Positions 45,820-60,167 of a stretch of 64,000 nucleotides of DNA are shown piece after piece (positions within the stretch are counted from its first letter, which is position 1; every line of letters starts with the position of its first letter). The DNA comes from Syntrophales bacterium. GTDB taxonomy: Bacteria; Desulfobacterota; Syntrophia; Syntrophales; UBA2185. The stretch is from assembly GCA_035685925.1 (NCBI GenBank), contig DASRZZ010000077.1, forward strand, positions 12,061-76,060, in the 5' to 3' direction. Made by a program: the position numbers and the translations under genes. The notes under the pieces were generated by a model. The model saw only the letters and a program-made list of their open reading frames with translations. It did not search any database and had not been told where the DNA came from.

Positions 45820-46673
45820 GGTAATACACCATCAGAGTTGCACTAAATTTTTTCTTTGACAACTCGCTGAGACAAGAGTTTACGGAGTAAAGTCACTAAA
45901 TTTTCACTCCGGTGGTTAAACCGCCATTCTATCTCTTTCAAATAGAGATTAAAGTTTTTCTTTGGCACTCCACGGTAATGGTAAAGCCAATGTTTGGCAT
46001 AAGACCAAAATCCTTCAATGCCATCGAGGTAGTCTCTACCTTTGGGTTTCCCTTTGTCCTTCTTGATGACCACATGATTGCCACGAATGTCCAGGAACGT
46101 ATAAGCATGCCAGTCATCAGTATAATGAAGGCTCCCTGCCTTTGTATGACCGGTCATCAAAGGGATGAGTTCTCTTTTTCCTCTGCTGGTGATGGGAAAG
46201 GCTAAAACCTTGCCATTCCTTTGATAGAGACCGAAAACCATCCGTTTGCCGGCGGCACCCCAGCCGCGCTTGCCAGGAACTTTGCCGCCAAACATGGTTT
46301 CATCCATCTCGATCTCGCCGGAAAGCTCAGAAAGCTCTTTCATCGCTTAATCGTATAGGGCCTCTCTTAAAATTCTGAACCATCTCTGAACTGTCTTAGG
46401 ATCTAAAGGCACCTGGAAACGAAGACGATAGGCTGGAACACCTAAACAGAAAAAATTTAGAAGCCTTCCTTTCCAATACGGAGAAATCTTCATTGAATAC
46501 CATAACGTCTTATCAAATTTCCGGGTCAGACCATACTGACTGCAGCGCTTCTGACCTGTTGACAAATTCCAAAATTTCTTGCCGCCGCAGCGAGAACAAC
46601 TTTTCATAGCTGATCTCTACATTATTTCAGCTATTTATCAAAGAACTAAGTGCAATCTAACTGGGGAATTGCC
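45820..46673 (-). mobile_element. IS1595-family insertion sequence (about 854 bp)
   Basis: Imperfect 25-bp terminal inverted repeats ggtaatacaccatcagagttgcact / ggcaattccccagttagattgcact (16/25). Flanks taatttta / tcattttt may be a decayed 8-bp target duplication. Confidence 0.8.
45843..46607 (-). pseudogene. IS1595 (ISXO2-like) transposase with an in-frame TAA
   Basis: Zn-ribbon/HTH ORF 46347-46607 and catalytic ORF (EMDET, YTDDW, IEGFWS, YLKEIEWRFN) are in the same frame, separated by TAA at 46347-46349. Confidence 0.85.
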
Positions 46674-47095
46674 TCATTTTTGTAAAAGTTAAATATTTTT
46701 TAATATTAATTATGAATCTTTTAATATTGTCTTTTAACCTTTATGACTATATAAGCACTAAATCTGATCGCAGCGTAAAGTTCTCAAATTCTCCTTTTAA
46801 GTTTTAGATACTTATATCAATAGCAGATTCCAATAGTACGGCATACCCCTTATGACCTGCATTAAAGGGCTCCAGAGAATGAAACCGATAGAAAAATGGC
46901 GAGGCGGTTCATGCTTAAAAGAAGCAGAGGAATAATTATAATGTGGAGATTTGGCAGTCGTCGTGGGGAGATTATAATTGATTCTTTAATAACGGAAGGA
47001 GGTGGTCGTCGGTTTAGATTAGAGTTATGATCCGGTGAATGAATTCTGGAAGACTTTAACAACTTTAATTGGAATCAAAAAAGGAGGATGACATT

Positions 47096-48388
47096 ATGGC
47101 AGGAGAATTAAAGCCTCGTTGGGGTCAACCCATAACTGGCATAGTTTCTACCATAGCATTTTTTTTGATCGCATGGATTACCTGGTATCTATTCAGCGAT
47201 CCCCGTGGGCCCATGGGTCTATTTCCTTATCCGTTCGTTCTTATACTCGCCTGGATGATTCTGGTGGGTTTGTGGCAGCACATGTTCTTGGGAGACTGGC
47301 CGTTCCAGAAGTTATCGCCACCCGTCAGAGGGGTTGTGATGACCATTGTTAACCTGATCGGTGTGTGGTTTCTTATCGAAGTCATTTTTAATCGGGTTTT
47401 TGGTCTGGGATTCAATTTCTTAAGTCAAACCAATCTTAATGCACTGGCGGCGGCTGGGGCTACGGTAATGCCCGAAGGGTGCGGGAAATCTCTTACCTAT
47501 GAAGCGATGAAAGGTGCACATTTTGCGCAGAGTGCAGGAGTGGGATTCGTTCTGATCGGATTCTACGCGTATCCCTTCGTGACAATCCTTTTTGGGAAGT
47601 GGCCAATCCGTCCCAGCAATCTGGAGCAGCCCGCAGCCGGTATTGCTGAAATAGGTTATTGCAGCTTGCTCGTCCTTTTCTTCTACGTCGTTCTTATCGT
47701 TCCCTTCTTCGGTTTGGTCTTCGAGAAGATGTTCGGTAATGCATATGGCATGAACACTCCCTGGTGGGGCGCTATAGGCGGCACCCCCCACCTGCACTGG
47801 GTCTTCGGCTGGTGGGAATGGGCGGTCATCGTCCTGTTCATGACTGCCAATGTCTGGCGCATGAAACCCTGGTCGCTCATCACGCTTCCCCAGCCCTGGA
47901 AAGGTCTCATATCTTTCGTGGGTACCATAGTGCTTGCATACATTTGCGCTTTGATTTGTCTGAAAATCATTCCACTATGGGCGAACATGGATGATATTAT
48001 TCACCATCTGCCGGCCGGAGATAAGGGGAATCCGATACGGTTCCTTTGGTACCACTCGGCTGAGATCGCAGGCATGACCCTGATTCCTTTCCTGCAGTGG
48101 CACCACTATTTTGATGATATGTCCCCGGCGAAGAATGTGGATTCCTGGGGCGGATTCTGGTTCAGAACGTTTGGGGTGGTTGTTTTAGCCGCAGTTCTGT
48201 ATATCTGCTACTATTACATCAACTTCGGTTACTGGGGACTCGGCAATCACCACATGGAGCATGATGTTGCTGAAAGATTATTAAATGGCGAATCCCTTAT
48301 CTGGAATTTCTGGTGGATCATTCCCCTCCTATGGAACGAATGGTTCTTCCACAAGTGGCCTTTCTATGTTCATGATGAACATCACTAA
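47096..48388 (+). CDS. Uncharacterised polytopic membrane protein (putative permease)
   Basis: About 10 hydrophobic segments, Trp/Pro-rich, AAGGAGG RBS before ATG 47096, first gene of the acyl-CoA cluster. Confidence 0.8.
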   Translation: MAGELKPRWGQPITGIVSTIAFFLIAWITWYLFSDPRGPMGLFPYPFVLILAWMILVGLWQHMFLGDWPFQKLSPPVRGVVMTIVNLIGVWFLIEVIFNRVFGLGFNFLSQTNLNALAAAGATVMPEGCGKSLTYEAMKGAHFAQSAGVGFVLIGFYAYPFVTILFGKWPIRPSNLEQPAAGIAEIGYCSLLVLFFYVVLIVPFFGLVFEKMFGNAYGMNTPWWGAIGGTPHLHWVFGWWEWAVIVLFMTANVWRMKPWSLITLPQPWKGLISFVGTIVLAYICALICLKIIPLWANMDDIIHHLPAGDKGNPIRFLWYHSAEIAGMTLIPFLQWHHYFDDMSPAKNVDSWGGFWFRTFGVVVLAAVLYICYYYINFGYWGLGNHHMEHDVAERLLNGESLIWNFWWIIPLLWNEWFFHKWPFYVHDEHH

Positions 48389-48400
48389 TTGATCAAAGTC

Positions 48401-48431
48401 GAGGTAAAGGGGCGAGATGCCCCTTTACCTC
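48401..48431 (+). terminator. 13-bp perfect stem-loop after the permease (terminator or stabiliser)
   Basis: gaggtaaaggggc-gagat-gcccctttacctc, with no U tract. Confidence 0.55.
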
Positions 48432-48512
48432 AGTCAACTATGTTGCCCGTGCACAGGGGTTTGTTTTGGTAAATGCTGTGCAAATTAGTTATGGTTTTGA
48501 AAGGAGGAAGTT

Positions 48513-49568
48513 ATGGCGAGAATTCGCGGGAAAGCTAAGAAAGCTGAAATTATGACGCTTGAAGAAGCGGTTAAGAAATATATGCACAACGGCATCCAGA
48601 TTGCCTTCAGCGGGTTTACGGGATTTAACAGAAACCCCATGGCCTTTGCCTGGGAAGTCGTAAGACAAAAATACAAGGACCTGCATGTCATAGACAGGCA
48701 TGGCAGTTGCTGCACCTGGCTCCTTAATACCGTCGGTGCCATTAAGGTTTATGAAACTGACTGGATGGGCTGGGGTGAGATGGCGGGAAAACTCGACATC
48801 AATATGGAACGGATTTACAAGGCAGGAAAAATAATTCTTGAGGACTATTCTCACGGCGCAATGGCCATGAGATTCCTTGCCGGCGCCATCGGCGCGCCCT
48901 TCATTCCCTATTATGCGCCGCTGGGATCGGACCTCTACAATGCGGACTTTGATGCATTGGGAAAAGCCGGCCAGAGAGGCGGTAAAAATTCCAGGATTCC
49001 GAAGAAGAAATTCATCCAGATTGAAGAACCCTTCTTTGGCGATGGAGAGGTTGTTCTCCTGCCCGCTGCAAGGCCGGAACTCGCAGTCATTCACGTATCC
49101 AAGGTAGGCGACAAGGGGACGGCAAGATGGCGGGGCGTTGGGACGATTGACAAAGAAATCGCCTTTGCCTGCGACAAGGTCGTAATCACTGCAGAAGAGG
49201 TAGTTCCTGAGGGAGAGATGAGGAAGGATCCGGAATCCAATCAGATTCCCTTCTTTACTGTTGACGCCATTGTGGAAGTGCCTTGGGGAGCCTTCCCGAG
49301 TGGTGTCCCGTTCTATTATGATTATGACGCGCCCTTTATGCGGGAGATGGATAAGGCATCAAGAAACGTCGAGGACCTGAAAAAATGGCTCGATGACTGG
49401 GTATTTGGTCCGAAGAACTGGGAAGATTTCGTCGTGAAGCTCGGTGCACAGAAACTGTTGTCTCTCAGGGCGGACAGCACTACCGGATACAGCACCAAGA
49501 TGATGCGAGGAAAGAACCCGGCACCGAGGATGAAGATGCCTTTATCTGTTGCTCGCAGTGGCTATTAA
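48513..49568 (+). CDS. Family I CoA-transferase subunit A (GctA-like)
   Basis: MTLEEAV, EDYSHGAMAMRFLAGAIGAPFIP, ITAEEVV, EVPWGAFP. Confidence 0.88.
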   Translation: MARIRGKAKKAEIMTLEEAVKKYMHNGIQIAFSGFTGFNRNPMAFAWEVVRQKYKDLHVIDRHGSCCTWLLNTVGAIKVYETDWMGWGEMAGKLDINMERIYKAGKIILEDYSHGAMAMRFLAGAIGAPFIPYYAPLGSDLYNADFDALGKAGQRGGKNSRIPKKKFIQIEEPFFGDGEVVLLPAARPELAVIHVSKVGDKGTARWRGVGTIDKEIAFACDKVVITAEEVVPEGEMRKDPESNQIPFFTVDAIVEVPWGAFPSGVPFYYDYDAPFMREMDKASRNVEDLKKWLDDWVFGPKNWEDFVVKLGAQKLLSLRADSTTGYSTKMMRGKNPAPRMKMPLSVARSGY

Positions 49569-49587
49569 AGGAAAGGGGGGAATTAAA

Positions 49588-50484
49588 ATGGCTAAAACAA
49601 TGGAAGAATTGATGGAGTTGATCGACAAGATACCCGAGGAGAAAGCCAAAGCGGGTGAATTTATCCTGCCCGAATTGATGGCGATCGCCATTGCTCACGA
49701 AGTTTTGAATGATGACGTTGTCTTTGCCGGTACAGGGCTTCCCATGGTTGGGATTATGGCCGCCAACATGCTGAACGCGCCCAACGCCGTGTTGATTTAT
49801 GAATCAGGGGTATGCGACGGGAAAACCATGCATGTGCCCATGTCTGTGGCTGACCAGAGGGCCGCCAATCTAGCCTCCACCCTTGGTGGACTGGTGGATA
49901 CCTTTGGATATTATCTGCAGCAGGGTTTTGTGACCTTAGGGTTCCTCGGTGGAGCCGCTATTGATAAATACGGCGGCGTAAATGTAACATCCATCGGTGA
50001 TTACTATGCCCCTGCGCACCGCTTCACAGGGTCTGGGGGGAATTCCGACATAGGAACCATGTCGAAAAGGGTTGCCTACATCATCCTCCAGGAAAAAAGA
50101 AGATTCCTGGAGAGAAATGATTATACCACAACGCCCGGCTGGTGGTGCTGGGACTTCAAGACACGGGAGTGGAAACCTAAGAAGGAGGTCTGGAAAGGCA
50201 CGCCTTATGCTGATTCCGGGCCCTGTGGCGTGGTAACGAATATGGGCGTGTACAGGTTTGATGAGAAGGGAATCATCTACCTGGAAACATGCCACCCTGG
50301 TATTACCGTGGAGAAGATCAAAGAGAATTGCGGTTTTGATCTGAATGTTTCAAAGATTAAGGGTGAGACGCCAAACCCGACTTACAGGGAACTCTTTGTG
50401 TTGAGAGAGTTCGTTGACCCGGAATTGATCTTCCTGCCTGCGAAAACGGAATATCCGCCTGCGATCAAGTCAATTATTGGTTAG
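49588..50484 (+). CDS. Family I CoA-transferase subunit B (GctB-like)
   Basis: FAGTGLP, catalytic LIYESG, GFLGGAAIDKYG, GSGG. Confidence 0.88.
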   Translation: MAKTMEELMELIDKIPEEKAKAGEFILPELMAIAIAHEVLNDDVVFAGTGLPMVGIMAANMLNAPNAVLIYESGVCDGKTMHVPMSVADQRAANLASTLGGLVDTFGYYLQQGFVTLGFLGGAAIDKYGGVNVTSIGDYYAPAHRFTGSGGNSDIGTMSKRVAYIILQEKRRFLERNDYTTTPGWWCWDFKTREWKPKKEVWKGTPYADSGPCGVVTNMGVYRFDEKGIIYLETCHPGITVEKIKENCGFDLNVSKIKGETPNPTYRELFVLREFVDPELIFLPAKTEYPPAIKSIIG

Positions 50485-50561
50485 AAAACAACTTTAATAA
50501 CTGGATCCTGTCAACCTGCCGCCTAGGCAGGCTGGCAGGATAATTAGAAGGAGGACGGCAT

Positions 50562-51728
50562 ACGAATTTAGATCTGATAGAAGAGCAAACAATCATTCAG
50601 GATACAGCCCGTCGCTTTGCGAGAACAGAACTCGAACCGGTAGCGGCGCGGCTCGACCAGGAGGGCGACAGAGACACCTTCATTAGGAATTTGAAGAAAC
50701 TTGCCGAACTCGGTCTGATGGGCATCAACGTGAAGAGCGAATATGGAGGCTCTGAGGCAGGTGTGGTCGCTTTCAGTCTTGCGATCACAGAAATCGCCAG
50801 GGCTTGCGCCTCTACGGCGGTGACCATGTCGGTCAATAACATGGTCTGCGAGGTAATCCAAGCGATTGGCTCGGAAGAGCAGAAGATGGTTTATATTCCG
50901 AAGATCTGTTCGGGCGAATACCCTGCCGGTGGGTTTGCATTGACTGAGACCATGGCGGGCTCCGATGCAGCAGGGCTTCAGGCGTCTGCTGTTCTGGACG
51001 GCGATCACTGGGTTCTCAATGGGTCGAAGATATTTATTACCAGCGCCGAATACGCCGGCGTGTTCGTTGTTTGGGCGGTTACCGATAAAAAGGCGAAGAA
51101 GGGCAGCGGTATAAGCACATTTCTCGTTGAAAACGGCGCTCCCGGTTTTAAGATTGGCCGTCTAGAGCACAAAATGGGTCAGCATGCATCTTCAACGAAT
51201 GAACTGATCTTTGAAGATTGCCGGATACCGAAATCAGCCCTCATGGGGAAGTTGAATGGCGGCTTCAAGACAGCCACGGGAGAACTTGCTGGTGGGCGCA
51301 TAGGCATCGGATCCCTTGCTTTAGGTATCGGACTTGCAGCGATGGATTATGCCACGCGATATGCAATGGAGAGAAAGCAGTTCGATCAGTCCATCACGAA
51401 TTTCCAAGCTATCCAGTGGATGATTGCGGAGTCCTATACGGAGCTCGAGGCGGCAAGACTCCTCCTTATGAACGCAGCGTTCAAGAAGGAGCAGGGCAAG
51501 CCCTTTGCTAGAGAGGCATCTATGGCAAAGTATTTTGCGACCGAAGCCGCAGACAGGGCATGCTTCAACGCCATTCAAATGCTCGGGGGTTATGGATACA
51601 CCAATGAATTCCCTGTTGAACGTTATGCGAGAGACGTCCGGATTACGTTGATCTATGAAGGGACCAACCAGATACAACGGATGATAGTTGCCAGGGATAT
51701 TATGAACAGCCTCAAAGAATCGGCGTGA
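50562..51728 (+). CDS. Acyl-CoA dehydrogenase (apparent ACG start)
   Basis: FALTE..AGSD, GSKIFIT, RKQFDQ, GGYGY, IYEGT. The in-frame N-terminus (T)NLDLIEEQTIIQDTARRFA follows GGAGG. Confidence 0.9.
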   Translation, partial: TNLDLIEEQTIIQDTARRFARTELEPVAARLDQEGDRDTFIRNLKKLAELGLMGINVKSEYGGSEAGVVAFSLAITEIARACASTAVTMSVNNMVCEVIQAIGSEEQKMVYIPKICSGEYPAGGFALTETMAGSDAAGLQASAVLDGDHWVLNGSKIFITSAEYAGVFVVWAVTDKKAKKGSGISTFLVENGAPGFKIGRLEHKMGQHASSTNELIFEDCRIPKSALMGKLNGGFKTATGELAGGRIGIGSLALGIGLAAMDYATRYAMERKQFDQSITNFQAIQWMIAESYTELEAARLLLMNAAFKKEQGKPFAREASMAKYFATEAADRACFNAIQMLGGYGYTNEFPVERYARDVRITLIYEGTNQIQRMIVARDIMNSLKESA

Positions 51729-51986
51729 ACCATCCGAGGCTGAAGTGCATTTGGCGGTCAGGGTCGGAAACAGCAGCAAAATAAAGCTTGCACAGCAGGG
51801 AGCGAATTGCGCCAAAATAGGCGGCCACCGCGAAGTTGCGTCACCGGCAAAGCAGGATCGTACAGGTGACCTTCGGTCATCAAGTTTCATAAATTGCTTT
51901 GAAAATTGCCTTCGGAAACTGGGTCTCGTATTGCCGCTTTCCAGGGGCAGAATAATTTTACATATTTCTAAACAATGGGGGTAGTA

Positions 51987-53342
51987 ATGGAAAAGGTACC
52001 ACAAAAGCTGGAGAAGACCAGGGCAGAGATGTATGCCAATGCACCGATCTCGAAGTTCGGAGAGAGAAAGCCTGATTTCTCAACGATGGGGCGGAAAATA
52101 AAGAATCAGTTCAAGAGTTTCAGAGAGGTTGTCGTTGTTGAGGCATGCCGGACGCCATATGGCAGATTCGGGGGAGCACTGAAGGGTTTCTCAGCAGCCG
52201 AACTTGGGGCCTTGGCGATCAAGGAAGTAATCAAGCGGACAAATGGAAAGGTCAAACCGTCCGATGTGGATTACGTTTTCATGGGGCAGGTGGTTCCTGC
52301 AGGGTGTGGACAGGTACCCAGCAGGCAGGCAACCATCCTGGCAGGTCTACCTGAATCCATTCCCTCCATTACAATCAATAAAGTATGTTCTTCAGGTATT
52401 AAGCCGGTCGATCTCGCTGCCCAGATGATCCAGCTGGGAAGAGCGGAGATCTGCATAGCCGGGGGCCAGGAGAGCATGAGCAATGGCCCGTATGCCCTGC
52501 CTGAGATGAGGTGGGGGACAAGGATGGGACTCCCGACGCGACCGGCCGTCGATTTGGTGGTCTTCGACGGGCTTTGGGACGCCTTCTATAACCGGCACAT
52601 GGCTATTCACGGCTCTGAGGTCGGTGATGAATTCGGCGTTACGCGACAGGATCAGGATGAATGGGCCCTTCACTCCCAGCTGGCGGCGGTTGAGGCCATG
52701 AAAACCGGGAAACTGGATGATGAAATATTCCCCGTGGAAATCAAGCAGGGGAAGAAGGCAGTCATATTCGATAAAGACGAAGGGCCGAGGCCGGAAACGA
52801 CGATGGACGGGCTGGCTAAGTTGCCGCCCGTATTCAACCACAAGAGCCCGGTCACGGGAGGCCCCGGAAGCGTTACGGCGGGCAATGCACCGGGAGTCAA
52901 CGACGGGGGGGATGTCTGCTTGTTGATGAGCAGACAGATGGCCGACAAGCTTGGCATGAAACCCCTGTTTACGATACTTGATTACGCCGAGGTTTCCCAG
53001 CCGCCGAAGGATATTGCGACGGTGCCGGGCCTGGCAATCAAAAAACTCCTCGCACAAAATGACATGACCCTAGATCAGGTAGATCTTCTGGAGATCAATG
53101 AAGCATTTGCTGCCGTTGTCTTGGTCAGTGCCCGTTACATCCTGGGCATGAGCAAGGAAGATATGTTTAAGAGAGTCAATGTTAATGGAAGCGCAATTGC
53201 ATATGGCCACCCTATAGGTGCAACAGGCGCGAGAATCGTCATGACTCTTGCCTATGAACTGCGGCGAAGAGGCGGCGGGATCGGGATATGCGGTATATGC
53301 TCGGGCCATGCCCAGGGCGACGCGATGCTGATCAAAGTATAA
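51987..53342 (+). CDS. Acetyl-CoA C-acyltransferase (thiolase)
   Basis: NKVCSSG, NEAF, GHPIGATG, CSGHAQG. Confidence 0.95.
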   Translation: MEKVPQKLEKTRAEMYANAPISKFGERKPDFSTMGRKIKNQFKSFREVVVVEACRTPYGRFGGALKGFSAAELGALAIKEVIKRTNGKVKPSDVDYVFMGQVVPAGCGQVPSRQATILAGLPESIPSITINKVCSSGIKPVDLAAQMIQLGRAEICIAGGQESMSNGPYALPEMRWGTRMGLPTRPAVDLVVFDGLWDAFYNRHMAIHGSEVGDEFGVTRQDQDEWALHSQLAAVEAMKTGKLDDEIFPVEIKQGKKAVIFDKDEGPRPETTMDGLAKLPPVFNHKSPVTGGPGSVTAGNAPGVNDGGDVCLLMSRQMADKLGMKPLFTILDYAEVSQPPKDIATVPGLAIKKLLAQNDMTLDQVDLLEINEAFAAVVLVSARYILGMSKEDMFKRVNVNGSAIAYGHPIGATGARIVMTLAYELRRRGGGIGICGICSGHAQGDAMLIKV

Positions 53343-53449
53343 GAAATTTACGTTCCTTAAGGCTCAAGTTCTTTTCTTCGGTGTTTGAAAGAATTTTACT
53401 TTTGGGAAGATAGGTTCTGAGAATAAAAAATGACGGGAGGAAGGTAGTC

Positions 53450-54307
53450 ATGGCAGTCAAGACATTTGGTGTAGTGGGCGCCGGTCAGATGGGAAACGGT
53501 ATTGCCCAGGTTGCTGCAAGCCCGGGAGGGCTCAATGTAATCATGAATGACATTGCGGACCAGTTCGTTGATAAAGGATACGATGCGATTTCAAAGAACC
53601 TGGACAGGCTCATCGCCAAGGAGAAGCTCACCGCTGACCAGAAGAAAGAAATCATGGGCCGCATCAAGAAGAGCACGAAGCTGGAAGACATGAAGGATGC
53701 CGACTTCGTTGTAGAGGCGGCTGTGGAGAGGGAAGATTTGAAACTGGGGATATTCAGGAAGCTTGATGAAGTCTGCAAGCCGGGCGTAATTCTCGCTACG
53801 AATACATCTTCGATTCCCATCACGAGGATAGCGGGGGCGACAAAGAGACCTGCCCTGGTCATCGGGATGCATTTCATGAATCCCGTCCCGGTGATGAGGC
53901 TCGTGGAGATTATCAGAGGCCTTGCTACCTCTCAGGAAACTTACAATATGACGGAGGCCTTGTCCAAGCAATTTGGGAAAGTTCCTGTCGAATGCAACGA
54001 CTTCCCCGGATTTATATCGAACAGGATCCTTATGCCTATGATCAATGAGGCCGTTTATGCCCTGATGGAAGGGGTAGGAACGCCCAAGGCCATTGACGAC
54101 ATTATGGTGCTGGGCATGAATCACCCTATGGGTCCTCTGGCACTGGCTGACCTGATTGGTCTCGACACGTGCTGGGCCATAATGGACGTTCTATACAAGG
54201 GATTTGGTGATTCCAAGTACCGCCCCTGTCCGCTTCTCAAAAAATATGTGGATGCAGGTTATATGGGGAGAAAAACGGGAAAAGGATTCTACGATTATAG
54301 CAAGTAA
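53450..54307 (+). CDS. hbd: 3-hydroxybutyryl-CoA dehydrogenase
   Basis: [34 protein letters not shown]. Confidence 0.93.
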
Positions 54308-54496
54308 AAATTGCGAATTTCGCTTCGGAAGGGAACGCAACCCGGGATGGCGGCAAGATAAAGTGGTTGCAGGGAAGCGAATTTCTTCATTGCGGGAAAA
54401 TAAGATTTGGGCTGAGAAGCCCGAAGTTTAGTTGAAAAAATAGGCTCTCGGAAACCTGTCCGAGAGCGAGAAGAAATGGAAAAGGGGGTATATCTG

Positions 54497-55279
54497 ATGG
54501 AATTCAAGAACCTCTTGTTTGCAGTTGAGGACGATGTCGCTACAATAACGTTTAACAGACCCAAGGCCTTAAATGCGATGAATACGGAAACCATGAAGGA
54601 GCTTATGGATGCAGTTACACTCTGTAAAAATGATGACACCGTAAAGGTTCTCATCCTCACCGGGTCGGGAGACAAGGCCTTTGTAGCGGGCGCCGATATA
54701 TCAGGGATGCAGAACCTGCGTCCTAAAGAGGCCCTTGCCTTTATGGAGCTTGGTAATGAGACCCTGCGATTGATTGAAACGCTGCCAAAGCCTTCCATAG
54801 CCGCTGTGAATGGTTTTGCCCTGGGCGGCGGCACGGAGATCGCCATGTCCTGCGATATGAGATTTGCAGCGGAGACAGCCCGTTTCGGCCAGCCGGAAAT
54901 ACTGATCGGATTGATACCTGGATGGGGAGGAACTCAGAGGCTTTCGCGTTTAATAGGAATGGGAAGGGCCAAGGAGCTCATCATGGGTGGTGAACAGATT
55001 GATGCGAAAAGGGCCTTCGAAATTGGCCTGGTTAACAGGGTGTTTCCCCTGGATCAGCTTCTTGCGGAAACAAAGAAATTCGCGCTGAAACTTGTACGCA
55101 TGCCCGGATTTGCCCTGAAGATGGCCAAACATTCGATCAATTATGGTTATGATCTTGCGCTTGATAACGGAATCAGACTTGAAATGGAATGCTGCGCCCA
55201 GTGCTTCAGCACGGATGATCAGAAAGAAGGAATGAAGGCATTCCTTGAAAAGAGAAAACCTGTTTACACTGGTAAGTGA
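54497..55279 (+). CDS. crt: Enoyl-CoA hydratase (crotonase)
   Basis: AFVAGADI, GFALGGGTE, FGQPE, PGWGGTQRL. Confidence 0.92.
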   Translation: MEFKNLLFAVEDDVATITFNRPKALNAMNTETMKELMDAVTLCKNDDTVKVLILTGSGDKAFVAGADISGMQNLRPKEALAFMELGNETLRLIETLPKPSIAAVNGFALGGGTEIAMSCDMRFAAETARFGQPEILIGLIPGWGGTQRLSRLIGMGRAKELIMGGEQIDAKRAFEIGLVNRVFPLDQLLAETKKFALKLVRMPGFALKMAKHSINYGYDLALDNGIRLEMECCAQCFSTDDQKEGMKAFLEKRKPVYTGK

Positions 55280-55333
55280 TTAGTCGTTTTATACTGCTTT
55301 AATTAAACATTATTGTAAGGGGGGTTATGAGCC

Positions 55334-56482
55334 ATGAATTTTGGTTTAACAGAAGATCAACGTGACGTAAAAGAGATGGTAACAAAATTTGCAGAGCAGG
55401 AGATTAAACCTATTGCCGCAGAGTTGGACAAGACTCACAGGCATCCGGAAGAGATCTGCCGCAAGCTTGGCGAAATGGGCATCATGGGCATTGCCGTGCC
55501 TCAGGAATACGGCGGTGCGGGCATGGATACGGTGACGTACGTCCACAGCCTGATCGCGATTTCCAAGGCCTGTGCAAGTTGCGGTGTTATTGTGTCGGTC
55601 AACAATTCCCTGTACGGGTACCCGGTACTGGCCTTCGGGTCGGAAGAGCAGAAGAAAAAGTATTTACCACCCGTGGCCGGCGGGAAGGTCGAAGGCTGCT
55701 ATGGGTTAACAGAGCCAAGCGCCGGGTCGGATGCGGCAGCACTGAAGTGCCGGGCCGTATTGAAAGGCGACAAATATATCGTTAACGGGACCAAAATCTT
55801 CATAACAAACGGTAATGTGGCGCATTACTGCGTTCTAGCTGTCACGACCGATCCCGCGTTAGGATACAAGGGTGTCATCAATCTCATCGTTGACATGAAG
55901 AACACCCCTGGTTTTAAAGTAGGGAAGATCGAGGAAAAGATGGGAATCCTCGCGTCAGGCACGGCTGAGCTTGTCTTCGAGGACGCCGAGGTACCGGCGG
56001 CAAACCTCCTGGGTAAGCCGGGACAGGGTTTTAAGCAGATGATGATGGGGCTGGACGCGGGGAGAATCGGCATTGGTTCCCAGGCTTGCGGTATAGGCAA
56101 GGCCGCTCTGGAAGACGCCTTGGCTTATGCAAAAGAGAGGGTGCAGTTCGGTAAGCCGATCGCGACATTCCAGGCGATCCAGTTCAAGCTCGCCGATATG
56201 GCAATGGAGCTTGATGCAGCGGAATTGATGCTCCTTCGCGCCGCCTGGATGGAAGACAACCATCTTGATTTTGAGAAGGAATCGGCCATGGCCAAGTGTT
56301 ATGCGTCCGATGTGGCAATGAAGGCTGCCGTTGAATGCGTTCAGATATTCGGCGGTTACGGCTACACGAAAGAGTATCCGGCCGAAAGGCACATGCGGGA
56401 TGCGAAGATCTGCCAGATCTATGAAGGGACGAACGAGATTCAGAGGGTGGTTATCTCAAGAAAACTTTTGAGCATGAGATAA
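55334..56482 (+). CDS. Short-chain (butyryl-CoA-type) acyl-CoA dehydrogenase
   Basis: GLTEPSAGSD, NGTKIFITN, RVQFGKPI, GGYGY, IYEGTNEIQR. Confidence 0.93.
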   Translation: MNFGLTEDQRDVKEMVTKFAEQEIKPIAAELDKTHRHPEEICRKLGEMGIMGIAVPQEYGGAGMDTVTYVHSLIAISKACASCGVIVSVNNSLYGYPVLAFGSEEQKKKYLPPVAGGKVEGCYGLTEPSAGSDAAALKCRAVLKGDKYIVNGTKIFITNGNVAHYCVLAVTTDPALGYKGVINLIVDMKNTPGFKVGKIEEKMGILASGTAELVFEDAEVPAANLLGKPGQGFKQMMMGLDAGRIGIGSQACGIGKAALEDALAYAKERVQFGKPIATFQAIQFKLADMAMELDAAELMLLRAAWMEDNHLDFEKESAMAKCYASDVAMKAAVECVQIFGGYGYTKEYPAERHMRDAKICQIYEGTNEIQRVVISRKLLSMR

Positions 56483-56574
56483 AGCTGTCCATCACACAAA
56501 GCTCGTCTCATTTAAGAGGGAAAATAGAGATTCGTAAGAAGGCTTTCTTCTTTTAGTAGAAGAGTGGATGAAAG

Positions 56575-56874
56575 TTACTTTTCGATTCTGAAGGGTGAGA
56601 ACTCATACTCTTTTTCCTCGACGGCGAAAGCCACCCTGTCATCTTCGTTTACTGTGAGTTTGCCTTCTATAATGCGGCGGCATCCGAAATCGAAAAAGTT
56701 TACCTGGTGGGTAGGCACATCCTTCTCATCCATTTGTTTGTAGTATTGCTCTTTTTCAGCTGGTGTAAGTTCTCTGATGATGAGTTTTTGGCATCGTTCG
56801 CGGGCTTCCCATGTACCCTGGCGTATGGTGACCCGGTAATTGCCGTGAAATTTTATAGGCATTCTTATTTCCAT
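56575..56874 (-). CDS. Small hypothetical protein (99 aa)
   Basis: GGAGG RBS before ATG 56874; protein-like composition. Confidence 0.65.
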   Translation of the reverse strand: MEIRMPIKFHGNYRVTIRQGTWEARERCQKLIIRELTPAEKEQYYKQMDEKDVPTHQVNFFDFGCRRIIEGKLTVNEDDRVAFAVEEKEYEFSPFRIEK

Positions 56875-56982
56875 CACTGTACCTCCAGATTTCGCACTGT
56901 TTCGTAGCCGGAGACTGCATAGCACAACTTGGGATTATTGTCCATTTATTGATAGCGGTGCATTGCGGGCAGCCTTTTGTCT

Positions 56983-57011
56983 TTGACAAACCTGCATGAA
57001 GGGGAGATAAT
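56983..57011 (+). promoter_or_regulatory. Sigma70 promoter for the mutase-meaB genes
   Basis: TTGACA-17 bp-GATAAT upstream of the mutase RBS. Confidence 0.6.
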
Positions 57012-57084
57012 TCATGGATTCGACAGGCGGGTCCTGATTAATAATCAGCAATTATACCAGATTTATTTGGAAGGAGGCGGTAAT

Positions 57085-58767
57085 ATGTATTTTGCAAAAG
57101 AGGTGCTGAGTCAATCCAGCGAACTCAGAAAAAAATGGGAAGATGAGGTCCGGAAGGTGGTCAATAAGGTTCCTGACCAGAGGGAACGATGGTCCACCGT
57201 TTCAGACCTCGAAATCAGGAGACTCTACGGTCCTGAGGACATAAAGGATATGGACTTTGTCCGGGACATTGGATACCCGGGCCAGTTCCCATTCTTACGT
57301 GGCAATCAGGTGACGGGTTATCGCGGGCGATACTGGACGTTCAGGATGTTTTCCGGCATGGGAAGCGCCAAGGACACTAACCAGCGTTGGCACATGCTTC
57401 TCAAGGAGGGACAGACCGGACTCAGCACAGCCTTCGATTTCCCGACTCTTATGGGCTATGATACGGATGCGCCCAAGGCTCGCGGCGAGTGCGGGAAGTG
57501 CGGGGTCGCCATAGACACCCTAGAGGATTTTCTGCAATTGGTGGACGGGATTCCCATGGACGAGGTAACAACTTCCATGACCATCAATCCGCCGGCAACG
57601 GTCCTATGGGCCATGTACTGTGCGGCGGCGCAGATCAAGGGTATACCGCTTTCCAAGATAGGCGGCACGATCCAGAATGACATGCTGAAGGAATTCATCG
57701 CACAGAAGACCTTCATGTGTCCCCCGGAGCCGTCGGTCCGGCTCATCAGCGACACCGTCGAGTTCGGAACGAAGCATGTTCCCCGATGGAATACCATCAG
57801 CATCAGCGGGTACCATATCAGGGAAGCCGGTTCCACAGCGGTTCAAGAGCTTGCCTTTACCCTTCGTGACGGCATGGAGTATGTAGAGGATGTCGTAAAC
57901 AGGAAGGGGTTAAATGTCGATGAATTTGCTCCCAGGTTTTCGTTTTTCTTTAATTCCCACATCGATTTCTTTGAGGAGATATGTAAGATGCGTGCTGCCA
58001 GGCGGATCTGGGCAAAAGTGATGCGGGATCGTTATAAGGCAAAGGATCCGAGATCATGGTGGATGCGCTTCCATACTCAGACAGCCGGGTGTTCGCTTAC
58101 GGCTCAGCAGCCCTACAACAACGTAGTGCGGACAGCCACCGAAGCCCTTGCCGCTGTCCTTGGCGGTACCCAGTCCCTGCATACCAATTCACTCGACGAG
58201 GTTATGTGTCTTCCTTCGGATAACGCCGTGCAGATCGCCCTCAGAACGCAGCAGATCATTGCTGAGGAGACGGGCGCAGCCAGCACGATCGATCCACTGG
58301 CAGGTTCATACTTCGTGGAAACGCTGACGAATGAAATGGAAGAGCAGGCATGGGACTATATCAATAAGATTGATGAGATGGGCGGTATGGTTGCCGCAAT
58401 AGATAAGGGGTTTCCGCAGTTGGAGATAGCCGATGCTGCCTACAAGTACCAGAGGCAGATAGACTCTCACGAAAAGATTATGGTCGGCGTCAACAAATAT
58501 GTTACCGATGAAGAGATACCCATCCCTCTTTTGGAGATTGATGATAAAGTTGAAGAGGATCAGATCGCGCGGTTGAATGCAGTTCGCAGGAAAAGAGACA
58601 ATAAGGCAGTGAAGAAGAGTCTCGAAGATATTAAGAACGCGTGCAAGAAGGGAGAGAATGTCATGCCCCACTGCATCGAGGCCGTGAAGAATTTTGCCAG
58701 TATTCAGGAAATATGCGACGTCTATCGTGAGCTCTATGGCGAGTACCGTGATCCGGGACTCTATTAG
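57085..58767 (+). CDS. icmA: B12-dependent acyl-CoA mutase, large subunit (isobutyryl-CoA mutase type)
   Basis: GLSTAFDFPT, SMTIN, GTIQND, ISGYHIREAG, GGTQSLHTN. Specificity residues Phe (RMFSG) and Gln (EFIAQK). ATG 57085 with GGAGG. Confidence 0.85.
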   Translation: MYFAKEVLSQSSELRKKWEDEVRKVVNKVPDQRERWSTVSDLEIRRLYGPEDIKDMDFVRDIGYPGQFPFLRGNQVTGYRGRYWTFRMFSGMGSAKDTNQRWHMLLKEGQTGLSTAFDFPTLMGYDTDAPKARGECGKCGVAIDTLEDFLQLVDGIPMDEVTTSMTINPPATVLWAMYCAAAQIKGIPLSKIGGTIQNDMLKEFIAQKTFMCPPEPSVRLISDTVEFGTKHVPRWNTISISGYHIREAGSTAVQELAFTLRDGMEYVEDVVNRKGLNVDEFAPRFSFFFNSHIDFFEEICKMRAARRIWAKVMRDRYKAKDPRSWWMRFHTQTAGCSLTAQQPYNNVVRTATEALAAVLGGTQSLHTNSLDEVMCLPSDNAVQIALRTQQIIAEETGAASTIDPLAGSYFVETLTNEMEEQAWDYINKIDEMGGMVAAIDKGFPQLEIADAAYKYQRQIDSHEKIMVGVNKYVTDEEIPIPLLEIDDKVEEDQIARLNAVRRKRDNKAVKKSLEDIKNACKKGENVMPHCIEAVKNFASIQEICDVYRELYGEYRDPGLY

Positions 58768-58791
58768 GACTGATTGAAGGAGGAGATGGTA

Positions 58792-59202
58792 ATGGCTAAG
58801 AGAAAGATTCGAGTTATGGTAGCAAAACCAGGTCTTGACGGTCATGACCGGGGCGCCAGGGTTTTAGCGAGGTGTTTCCGGGATGCTGGTTTTGAAGTAA
58901 TATATACTGGGTGTCATCAGACACCAGCGCAAATCGCCGCCTCGGCGATCCAGGAAGACGTGGATCTCGTAGGCTTGAGCTGTCTATCGGGAGCGCACAG
59001 GTATTTATTCCCCCAGGTAGTTAATCTTTTACAGGAGAAAGGTGCAGGCGATATCACGGTTATCGGCGGGGGGATCATCCCCGAGCAGGATTTTCAGAAA
59101 CTCTATGACGCAGGCATCAAGGCGATTTTCGTCCCGGGAACGACCCTTGATACAATCGTGACGTGGGTTAATAATAATGTGATGCCAGTGGAAAGGAAAT
59201 AA
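58792..59202 (+). CDS. icmB: Acyl-CoA mutase cobalamin-binding small subunit
   Basis: KPGLDGHDRGA (DxHxxG), GLSCLSG, GGGIIP. Confidence 0.88.
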   Translation: MAKRKIRVMVAKPGLDGHDRGARVLARCFRDAGFEVIYTGCHQTPAQIAASAIQEDVDLVGLSCLSGAHRYLFPQVVNLLQEKGAGDITVIGGGIIPEQDFQKLYDAGIKAIFVPGTTLDTIVTWVNNNVMPVERK

Positions 59203-60167
59203 TGGAGAGAGGTAATAGGATTAAGGCGGGTGACATACGGACTGCCTCCCGCCTTATAAGAGACATAGAGGATAGTATCCCCGAAGCAAGACTGACCATA
59301 AAACATATCTTCCCATATACGGGTAAGGCCCAGGTCGTCGGGATTACCGGTTCGCCGGGAGCGGGGAAGAGCACCATTGTTGACGGTCTCATTGAGACAA
59401 GCCGTAAGATGGAAAAAACGGTAGGGGTTCTCGCCGTTGATCCGACGAGTCCCTTTACGGGAGGAGCAACCCTCGGTGACAGGATCCGTATGCAGCGACA
59501 CGCGGAGGATACAGGGGTCTTCATACGGAGCCTCGCCACTCGTGGTTCCCTGGGCGGGCTCTCAAAGGCAGTTGGTGATGCCATCCATGTTATGGATGCG
59601 ATGGGGAAAGATGTAATATTTGTAGAAACCGTAGGTACGGGTCAACAGGAGGTGGAAATTATCCACTATGCCCATACGGTAGTCGTTGTTCTTGTGCCTG
59701 GTATGGGTGATGAAATCCAGGCGATCAAGGCGGGCATCATGGAGATCGCCGACATATTCGTTGTCAATAAGGCCGATCGCGACGGAGCGGCGAAACTGCA
59801 GCGGGAACTGATGACCATGATCGAAATGTCGCCTATTACGCCCGGGGGTTGGAAGCCGCCTGTCGTTACAATCAGGAATTCCTTTAAGCCGGAAGAGTTT
59901 GAAGAGGACCTTAGAACATTATCGGTCAAGGTTCTCGAACACTATGACTTTCTCGTAACAAGTAACCTTATCGGTGACAGGCAGAGGCGCAAGCGGCTGC
60001 ATGAACTGAACGAGGCCCTGCGGTCCAGCATCCTCGAACCTGTATTAGGGATGCTCGTCAAGACGGGTGAACTCGACCTTATGGTCGATAAGATTATGAA
60101 GAAAGAATCGGATCCTTCTACCCTTGCCGAAGAGATAGCCAAAAAATATTTACAGGGATGTTTTTAA
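59202..60167 (+). CDS. meaB: Mutase-associated GTPase MeaB
   Basis: GITGSPGAGKST, AVDPTSPFTGG, GDRIRM, ETVG, NKAD. Confidence 0.95.
   Translation: MERGNRIKAGDIRTASRLIRDIEDSIPEARLTIKHIFPYTGKAQVVGITGSPGAGKSTIVDGLIETSRKMEKTVGVLAVDPTSPFTGGATLGDRIRMQRHAEDTGVFIRSLATRGSLGGLSKAVGDAIHVMDAMGKDVIFVETVGTGQQEVEIIHYAHTVVVVLVPGMGDEIQAIKAGIMEIADIFVVNKADRDGAAKLQRELMTMIEMSPITPGGWKPPVVTIRNSFKPEEFEEDLRTLSVKVLEHYDFLVTSNLIGDRQRRKRLHELNEALRSSILEPVLGMLVKTGELDLMVDKIMKKESDPSTLAEEIAKKYLQGCF

Follow-up and report, generated by a model that had tools for sequence, protein, structure and literature searches.

A Syntrophales gene cluster predicted to serve isobutyrate and butyrate oxidation, with a mutase of isobutyryl-CoA mutase type and an undescribed family of membrane proteins

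Isobutyrate is a product of valine fermentation, and anaerobes must isomerise it before it can be oxidised. A gene cluster encoding isobutyryl-coenzyme A (CoA) mutase (ICM) has been assigned to this isomerisation in the syntroph Syntrophothermus lipocalidus TGB-C1 (PMC5017805, as far as the available part of that paper goes). Its genes Slip_0757-0760 encode a mutase split into N-terminal and C-terminal domain proteins, together with a MeaB-like protein. The stretch of DNA analysed here, a window of 64,000 nucleotides from a Syntrophales bacterium (assembly GCA_035685925.1, contig DASRZZ010000077.1, positions 12,061 to 76,060), hosts a comparable cluster at 47096-60167 (Table 1). In it, genes for a membrane protein, a CoA-transferase and beta-oxidation enzymes precede a split B12-dependent mutase (mutA, mutB) and its MeaB-type chaperone. 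The likeness to Slip_0757-0760 is one of gene layout, and the layout of the latter, a stand-alone cassette with an adenosyltransferase, is that of most relatives of the mutase. In contrast, the cluster lacks an adenosyltransferase and combines the mutase cassette with a candidate transporter, a CoA-transferase and a complete C4 beta-oxidation set.

Other described systems resemble single parts of the cluster. IcmA/IcmB of Streptomyces cinnamonensis and the fused IcmF (4XC6) belong to the same superfamily as its mutase and depend similarly on B12 and a G-protein chaperone, but the cluster proteins are unfused and the similarity is low. The best solved match, HcmAB (4R3U), has the same split architecture; Phe and Ala replace in the cluster mutase the Ile and Asp of HcmA, and a hydroxyacyl substrate is therefore not expected. 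GctAB, the glutaconate CoA-transferase of PDB entry 1POI, is likewise made of two subunits, and is the best PDB match for both subunits of the cluster enzyme. These are longer than the 1POI chains, alpha by about 30 and beta by about 40 amino acids, and their context points to monocarboxylic short-chain acids, not to glutaconate. The thl-hbd-crt-bcd sets of clostridia and syntrophs comprise the same four enzyme families, but the cluster lacks etfAB, has two dehydrogenases, and its thiolase is extended.

The cluster may well be devoted to the uptake, CoA-transfer activation, isomerisation and beta-oxidation of isobutyrate and butyrate, a reading that we hold with moderate confidence. An original prediction, made from the letters of the window alone, had described a self-contained acyl-CoA rearrangement module in one co-oriented cluster. 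All the genes it claimed for 47096-60167 were found on the + strand, and the cluster itself indeed lacks genes for methylmalonyl-CoA epimerase, decarboxylase and electron transfer flavoproteins (ETFs). Co-orientation thus holds for the claimed genes, but a minus-strand open reading frame (ORF) of 99 amino acids interrupts the series. The cluster is real and conserved in the family of its host; the pathway prediction is sound but largely expected, having already been made for such bacteria. What is new here is the family of the membrane protein and, to a lesser degree, the small antisense ORF.

Table 1. Features of the cluster and of its immediate surroundings (positions in the window)
Feature	Position	Strand	Evidence
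Regulator, several PAS domains and C-terminal LuxR/GerE helix-turn-helix	43694..45814	+	Pfam PAS_4 1.9e-47, GerE 4.6e-12
Promoter-like site TTGGCA-16-TATAAT, 5' of membrane-protein gene	46951..46978	+	11/12 consensus matches
Membrane protein, about ten helices, 430 aa, putative short-chain carboxylate importer	47096..48388	+	no Pfam/NCBIfam match
Family I CoA-transferase alpha subunit (GctA-like)	48513..49568	+	PF01144 9.9e-21; PDB 1POI chain A E 2.4e-52
Family I CoA-transferase beta subunit (GctB-like), E-S-G	49588..50484	+	PF01144 1.2e-20; 1POI chain B E 8e-46
Short-chain acyl-CoA dehydrogenase 1, probable ACG start	50562..51728	+	three ACAD domains; 4L1F 1.7e-101, then 5OL2
Thiolase (acetyl-CoA C-acyltransferase)	51975..53342	+	Thiolase_N 1.7e-83; TIGR01930 406.2 bits, cut-off 240.55
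3-hydroxybutyryl-CoA dehydrogenase (Hbd)	53450..54307	+	NF004474 451.8 bits, cut-off 408
Short-chain enoyl-CoA hydratase (crotonase)	54476..55279	+	ECH_1 1.3e-71; NF004475 333.7 bits, under cut-off 394
Short-chain (butyryl-) acyl-CoA dehydrogenase 2	55334..56482	+	PDB 4L1F 5.1e-124, 5OL2 6.1e-118, 1BUC 4.8e-102
Conserved 99-aa ORF of unknown function, antisense to cluster	56575..56874	-	codon-like conservation, tblastn
Promoter-like site TTGACA-17-GATAAT, putatively for mutA-mutB-meaB	56983..57011	+	11/12 consensus matches
B12-dependent acyl-CoA mutase large subunit (mutA), predicted ICM type	57085..58767	+	PF01642 1.5e-217; TIGR00641 751.1 bits
B12-binding small subunit (mutB), D-x-H-x-x-G	58774..59202	+	PF02310 3.2e-25; TIGR00640 170.1 bits
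MeaB-type G-protein chaperone	59202..60167	+	PF03308 4.8e-81; TIGR00750 307.2 bits, cut-off 240.75

Alignments to 4R3U, 2XIJ and 5REQ place Phe89, Ala116 and Gln207 in the mutase pocket, the Met at 57085 being residue 1, and the same trio is found in all 87 matches of the cluster mutase type. At the corresponding positions the human and Propionibacterium methylmalonyl-CoA mutases have Tyr, Ala and Arg, and HcmA has Ile, Asp and Gln. A Phe/Gln pair at the Tyr89/Arg207 positions of methylmalonyl-CoA mutase is what we take to be the signature of isobutyryl-CoA mutases. The Phe/Gln mutase of the original prediction is thus confirmed, and because Phe89 and Gln207 stand in place of Tyr and Arg, and Ala in place of the Asp of 2-hydroxyisobutyryl-CoA mutase, the enzyme is classed by its pocket residues as a two-subunit mutase of ICM type. 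The MM_CoA_mutase barrel (PF01642) and the B12-binding domain (PF02310) are encoded by separate, adjacent genes, and the D-x-H-x-x-G cobalamin motif is present in the translation of the small subunit. HcmA, the nearest solved structure, is matched with 539.1 bits (E 1.2e-160); the match to IcmF (PDB 4XC6) scores 257.2 bits and spans query residues 218-591 only.

Three other identities have been discarded. A methylmalonyl-CoA mutase is at odds with Phe/Gln in place of Tyr/Arg, and NF006944 is matched with 631.1 bits against a cut-off of 876. HcmAB is set aside by the Phe and Ala occupying the Ile and Asp columns of 4R3U, and a fused IcmF by the presence of three separate genes and a score of 331.7 bits to NF045497, against a cut-off of 1500. 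Relatives of the mutase automatically labelled hcmAB are probably mislabelled. Members of this clade are routinely called methylmalonyl-CoA or 2-hydroxyisobutyryl-CoA mutases, which distorts metabolic reconstructions of Syntrophales and Smithella, including statements on the presence of the methylmalonyl-CoA route. Published reconstructions for the Smithella family in which these genes appear as hcmAB, or in which a mutase is said to be missing, may deserve a second look.

The enzymes encoded upstream fit short-chain substrates. The E-S-G of the CoA-transferase beta subunit aligns with the E-S-G of 1POI, a motif which presumably hosts the catalytic Glu of family I CoA-transferases. Both acyl-CoA dehydrogenases feature three ACAD domains and the motif Y-E-G-T, assumed here to be the catalytic-base motif of these enzymes, and are nearest to solved butyryl- and short-chain enzymes (4L1F, 5OL2, 1JQI). 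They are 44% identical to each other. Matched to 2JIF, a short/branched-chain enzyme, they score alike (298.4 bits for dehydrogenase 1, 297.2 for dehydrogenase 2), and matched to butyryl-CoA dehydrogenases dehydrogenase 1 scores lower than dehydrogenase 2. Hbd exceeds the cut-off of its equivalog family, and both Hbd and thiolase score as C4 enzymes.

The membrane protein matches no Pfam or NCBIfam model, and no Pfam domain was found in any of 21 remote full-length relatives. Searches returned 368 homologues at E <=0.001. The best 120 of these are 65-100% identical, come from Syntrophales, Syntrophobacterales, Desulfobaccales and Thermodesulforhabdus, and carry either no name or, from one source (JGI), the name "AAT family amino acid transporter", a label that is unsupported. 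The family is small and strongly conserved: a profile search against 1.84 billion representatives found only 103 clusters of relatives, and in the phylum the protein occurs in 14 of 401 sampled genomes, among those of the order only in the genus of the host. An AlphaFold model built from a diverse alignment (pLDDT 87.2, pTM 0.88) has about ten long helices; it supersedes an earlier one from a shallow alignment (pLDDT 70.8), which had matched no fold. Searched by Foldseek against the PDB, the model matches nothing at E <=0.001 (best E 0.059, TM-scores <=0.25), and VIA-align scores no natural chain above Z 3.8. A single VIA-align row attains Z 5 or more, that of a helical barrel designed de novo (Z 9.1, root-mean-square deviation 6.3 over 234 residues), which lies under the level meaningful for helical bundles. 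The protein, whose confident model no solved fold matches, would represent a family undescribed so far. Its halves, at about residues 51-200 and 240-372, are homologous, being aligned by hhalign over 130 columns with a probability of 88% (E 2.9e-6); a reversed control and eight shuffled ones all stayed at or below 0.9%. The protein also features a His-rich C-terminal tail and many invariant Trp residues.

The neighbours of this gene in other genomes are informative as to its role. Six of 13 homologues are located in or beside a cassette of ICM type, in five cases one encoding a different mutase clade, 61-62% identical, which also has Phe/Ala/Gln. Three of the 13 adjoin Gct-type CoA-transferase genes. 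An AMP-forming acyl-CoA synthetase is encoded by the next gene in three, and 1.5 kb away in a fourth. An ICM cassette or an acid-activating enzyme is thus found beside ten of the 13, and the remaining three, one of which lies on a 3.3-kb contig, are uninformative. In one locus (L035) the order is synthetase, thiolase, Hbd, the mutase trio, synthetase, membrane protein. In a member of the host's family (L134) the slot of the membrane protein, directly 5' of the CoA-transferase, is taken by a sodium:solute symporter family protein of 541 amino acids (L134:15331-16956, minus strand). Because of these neighbours and of the symporter found in the same slot, the membrane protein is probably a carboxylate importer; the evidence is circumstantial but good, and the family is a candidate for a new one of short-chain-acid transporters.

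Conservation of the cluster is marked in the family of the host. In 11 further genomes of this family, belonging to six genera, the mutase is always present. The order dehydrogenase 2, small ORF, mutA, mutB is kept in all ten newly fetched family genomes, with meaB following in nine, and the eleventh (G399) has the whole cluster. The block from CoA-transferase to crotonase was found in all seven family loci that reach that far, three others stopping at contig edges, and the membrane protein in five of the six that extend to its position. Parts of this linkage are repeated independently elsewhere: thiolase, Hbd and mutase genes adjoin in Desulfohalobiaceae (L019, L035), and the membrane protein, the CoA-transferase and an ICM-type mutase of the 61-62% clade occur together in other families (L115 and others).

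Taken together, these genes would form the following route. External isobutyrate, and n-butyrate as well, would be imported by the membrane protein, and the acid would be activated by the GctAB-like CoA-transferase with acetyl-CoA generated by the pathway as the likely donor. The adenosylcobalamin-dependent mutase, loaded by MeaB, would convert isobutyryl-CoA into butyryl-CoA, which a butyryl-CoA-type dehydrogenase, crotonase, Hbd and thiolase would turn into two acetyl-CoA. Electrons would exit via ETFs encoded elsewhere in the genome. The analysis shows the gene identities, the pocket residues and the conserved synteny; substrate, direction, CoA donor, transport role and co-regulation are inferred. 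Oxidation of n-butyrate would require the same genes minus the mutase, and the second dehydrogenase may widen the range to C5 acids. The two adjacent + strand units would probably be under the control of the upstream PAS-LuxR regulator. The original prediction had proposed, as one of two routes, the syntrophic oxidation of isobutyrate or 2-methylbutyrate via isomerisation. The isobutyrate form of this route is the best supported, by the ICM-type mutase, MeaB, the C4 set, the CoA-transferase, the likely importer and the family-wide linkage. The other half requires no mutase, because 2-methylbutyrate is beta-oxidised directly. These Syntrophales of peat and fen appear to hold a complete isobutyrate route in one compact gene set.

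Several observations weigh against this reading. Linkage was surveyed in 80 public loci hosting a mutase 76-95% identical to that of the cluster. Genes mutB and meaB follow mutA in all 67 loci with at least 1.6 kb of downstream sequence, which speaks for the mutase type. Upstream, 46 loci extend for 8 kb or more, and the full seven-gene set of CoA-transferase and beta-oxidation genes was found in only four of them, all four being the closest relatives. Any beta-oxidation homologue at least 50% identical lies within 4 kb in six of the 46; the additional two are Desulfohalobiaceae loci (L019, L035), with thiolase and Hbd directly upstream of the mutase. In loci outside the family, such as those from Smithella, Smithellaceae, Syntrophomonadaceae, Desulfosporosinus and Desulfobotulus, the cassette is found by itself, in many cases with an adenosyltransferase. 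Four other families were sampled by one genome each, with mutases 87% identical to that of the cluster: none of the four hosts the full set, and one has a homologue of dehydrogenase 1, 80% identical, about 4 kb downstream. It had been anticipated in the original prediction that a lack of conserved linkage in relatives would weaken the idea of a module: linkage is kept within the family, and outside it the idea is indeed weakened. Separate promoter-like sites and the antisense ORF between the two units weaken the case for co-expression. Isobutyrate alone requires no second dehydrogenase, and the set is one of many in the genome, which encodes about 21 ACAD, seven thiolase and nine Hbd homologues. 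The literature yielded no measured activity for any member of the mutase clade, and the nearest structure is HcmA, not IcmF, so that the enzyme may prefer C4, C5 or C6 chains. The pathway could also run in the reductive direction.

The host assembly measures 3.09 Mb in 194 contigs and is 93.6% complete, with 5.7% contamination; the cluster resides on contig C77. Its RpoB is 95% identical to that of a fen "Syntrophaceae bacterium" metagenome-assembled genome (MAG) of the same genus, which also bears the most similar cluster. Identity falls to 81% with a Syntrophales chromosome, 79% with a Syntrophus sp. MAG, 77% with a Smithellaceae chromosome and 75% with a Smithella sp. MAG. Judged by RpoB, the host is a Syntrophales lineage outside Smithella. 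Four other mutase large subunits are encoded in this genome. Two, on contigs C86 and C99, have Tyr/Ala/Arg, and the C86 copy is accompanied by its own MeaB, a CoA-transferase and a Gpr1/YaaH-type channel. The remaining two, C8:63676-65298 and C158:4036-5622, are split mutases featuring Leu/Val/Thr or Leu/Val/Ile, and are neither of methylmalonyl- nor of isobutyryl-CoA type. The genome also encodes, away from the cluster, a methylmalonyl-CoA epimerase (160.6 bits, over the cut-off), nine matches to ETF domains and two corrinoid adenosyltransferases.

Distribution of the mutase cassette was counted from matches at E <=1e-220, or at E <=1e-150 for the family that includes the Smithella records. 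The cassette is present in 100 of 150 other sampled genomes of the order, spread over 17 of 24 families, in many of which nearly all genomes have it (for example 11 of 11, 10 of 10, 9 of 10). It was found also in 20 of 61 Syntrophomonadaceae genomes, in Desulfosporosinus and in Desulfobotulus. In the family with the Smithella records, a mutase match at least 74% identical occurs in 71 of 81 sampled genomes. Matches 53-57% identical, the range of the Tyr/Arg copies of the host, occur in 18 of the 81, and matches 43-45% identical, with frames of 711-796 amino acids of the fused type, in 20. Dehydrogenase 2, mutA and mutB, 92-94% identical to those of the cluster, are present in a record of 4146 bases (L014) ascribed to a Methanoregulaceae archaeon. 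The assignment to a methanogen probably reflects misbinning in a community of syntrophs and methanogens.

Alternative functions can be envisaged for the cluster. Since the same 1,2-shift chemistry applies, and characterised ICMs accept C5 substrates, the mutase might mainly interconvert valeryl-CoA and 2-methylbutyryl-CoA, with one dehydrogenase on the straight and one on the branched side, and the cluster would then serve valerate, 2-methylbutyrate and other odd or branched acids. The low identity of the two paralogous dehydrogenases favours this, as does the behaviour of dehydrogenase 1, which about equals dehydrogenase 2 on 2JIF, yet scores lower on butyryl-CoA dehydrogenases. Against the C4 scores of Hbd and thiolase, and in a cluster with no gene for handling propionyl-CoA, we give such a function a small share of our belief; a C5 role could nevertheless exist alongside the C4 one. 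The pathway might also be run backwards, from acetyl-CoA to butyryl-CoA and isobutyryl-CoA, the membrane protein being an exporter and the two acids an electron sink. All steps are reversible, thiolase, Hbd, crotonase and dehydrogenase make up the clostridial set for butyrate synthesis, and the proposal that ICM takes part in isobutyrate production in Clostridium luticellarii (PMC10832561, PMC11880719, in the available parts of these papers) counts in the same direction. We consider this unlikely, as the order of the host is one of syntrophic fatty-acid oxidisers, and the AMP-forming acyl-CoA synthetases that adjoin homologues of the membrane protein act in the direction of uptake. Adjacency might, finally, not reflect a shared pathway, a general short-chain beta-oxidation operon having come to lie beside an independent mutase cassette. 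The cassette is autonomous in most lineages, and the two units are divided by the antisense ORF and have separate promoter-like sites; yet six genera of the family share the gene order, and unrelated lineages independently show pieces of the linkage, which makes chance neighbourhood quite unlikely.

The second route put forward in the original prediction was a C6 one, in which two propionyl-CoA are condensed by the thiolase, and the product is processed through 2-methylvaleryl-CoA and hexanoyl-CoA to butyryl-CoA plus acetyl-CoA, as in propionate dismutation. The chemistry is self-consistent. According to the available part of a 2026 comparative study, Smithella genomes largely lack the epimerase and no enzymes have so far been assigned to the dismutating step (PMC13685792), and in the Smithella-record family the close mutase match is by far more frequent than the one resembling the Tyr/Arg type. 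Were the ICM-type cassette the missing rearrangement enzyme, acting on 2-methylvaleryl-CoA and hexanoyl-CoA, the cluster with its thiolase, C4-C6 set, CoA-transferase and importer would encode the whole C6 route. Nothing specific speaks for it, however, and we rate both the C6 function of the cluster and the role of the cassette in dismutation as very unlikely. In a 2021 review, as far as its available text goes, dismutation is established in Smithella only (PMC8892533). By RpoB the host is much closer to its own genus than to Smithella, and for the ordinary methylmalonyl-CoA route it has two Tyr/Arg mutases, MeaB and an epimerase. Other Syntrophales families have the cassette just as often, and so do some butyrate oxidisers and sulfate reducers have it; Syntrophomonadaceae, Desulfosporosinus and Desulfobotulus, where it is found too, are not known for dismutation. 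In Smithella loci, moreover, it is not adjacent to beta-oxidation genes. The cluster provides a defined set of enzymes with which the C6 idea can be tested, probably to dismiss it.

Within the oxidation of isobutyrate and butyrate here favoured, the genes are most likely expressed from two transcription units, not as one operon, because the antisense ORF and a promoter-like site split the beta-oxidation genes from mutA-mutB-meaB. The gap between dehydrogenase 2 and mutA measures about 600 nt, and 580-605 nt in six relatives. The ORF located in it varies in a third-position-like manner among seven aligned relatives, and by tblastn is 83-92% identical in members of the family. In seven loci from other lineages (L020, L038, L039, L043, L044, L046, L047) a homologue 58-65% identical is located no more than a few kb from the mutase cassette. 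Searches of Pfam and of an atlas assigned no credible family to the ORF: a match to DGF-1_5 (Pfam, 26.5 bits) and matches to phage-like clusters in the atlas (<=0.85) were both judged uninformative. The TTGACA hexamer of the site at 56983-57011 is invariant in all seven aligned relatives. Promoter-like sites are not enriched over the region, 15 being found against 14.7 expected, and the one at 46951-46978 is a pattern match only.

Some gene starts deserve comment. The longest mutA frame opens at 56977. Homologues measure 547-563 amino acids in 119 of the 120 matches listed, and the Met at 57085 was for this reason chosen as the start. The frame of dehydrogenase 1 is open from 50544 and includes no ATG, GTG or TTG before 50691. 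A Shine-Dalgarno sequence, AAGGAGGA, is located 6 nt 5' of an ACG, and this codon is ACG in six of seven aligned sequences and CTG in the seventh (L010), which suggests a conserved non-canonical ACG start. At its N-terminus the thiolase is extended by about 47 amino acids (51975-52121), a stretch conserved in L010, L015 and L035; the last of these is a Desulfohalobiaceae homologue adjoining an ICM cassette (L035:7728-7870). A start near 52122 is ruled out by this conservation.

The other mutase loci of the host show some peculiarities. Contig C99 (3.3 kb) duplicates, with small differences, the stretch of C86 that comprises TerC, ABM and the Tyr/Arg mutase, as may result from strain heterogeneity or contamination. 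The C158 mutase adjoins a sigma-54 two-component system and a pair of CoA-transferase genes 61% and 71% identical to the pair of the cluster. The C8 mutase adjoins Hdr-like and aldehyde-oxidoreductase-like genes.

The cluster is flanked by housekeeping genes, SelB, EF-P modification and Tol-Pal genes upstream and a Memo-like gene downstream. Scanned against Rfam with E values up to 0.1, positions 40000-64000 gave no match, so that no B12 riboswitch or other known RNA lies in the gaps of this interval. The PAS-LuxR regulator likely controls the cluster. Homologues 68-91% identical are found 5' of the same cluster in members of the family, and in nine of the 80 surveyed loci a homologue 25-35% identical precedes the mutase cassette by a few kb. 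Regulator and cluster are separated by remnants of an IS1595-family transposase, two adjacent minus-strand ORFs of 166 and 86 amino acids at 45843-46607. This insertion is absent in the complete genome of the same genus (G399, locus L114), where regulator and cluster are spaced by about 400 nt.

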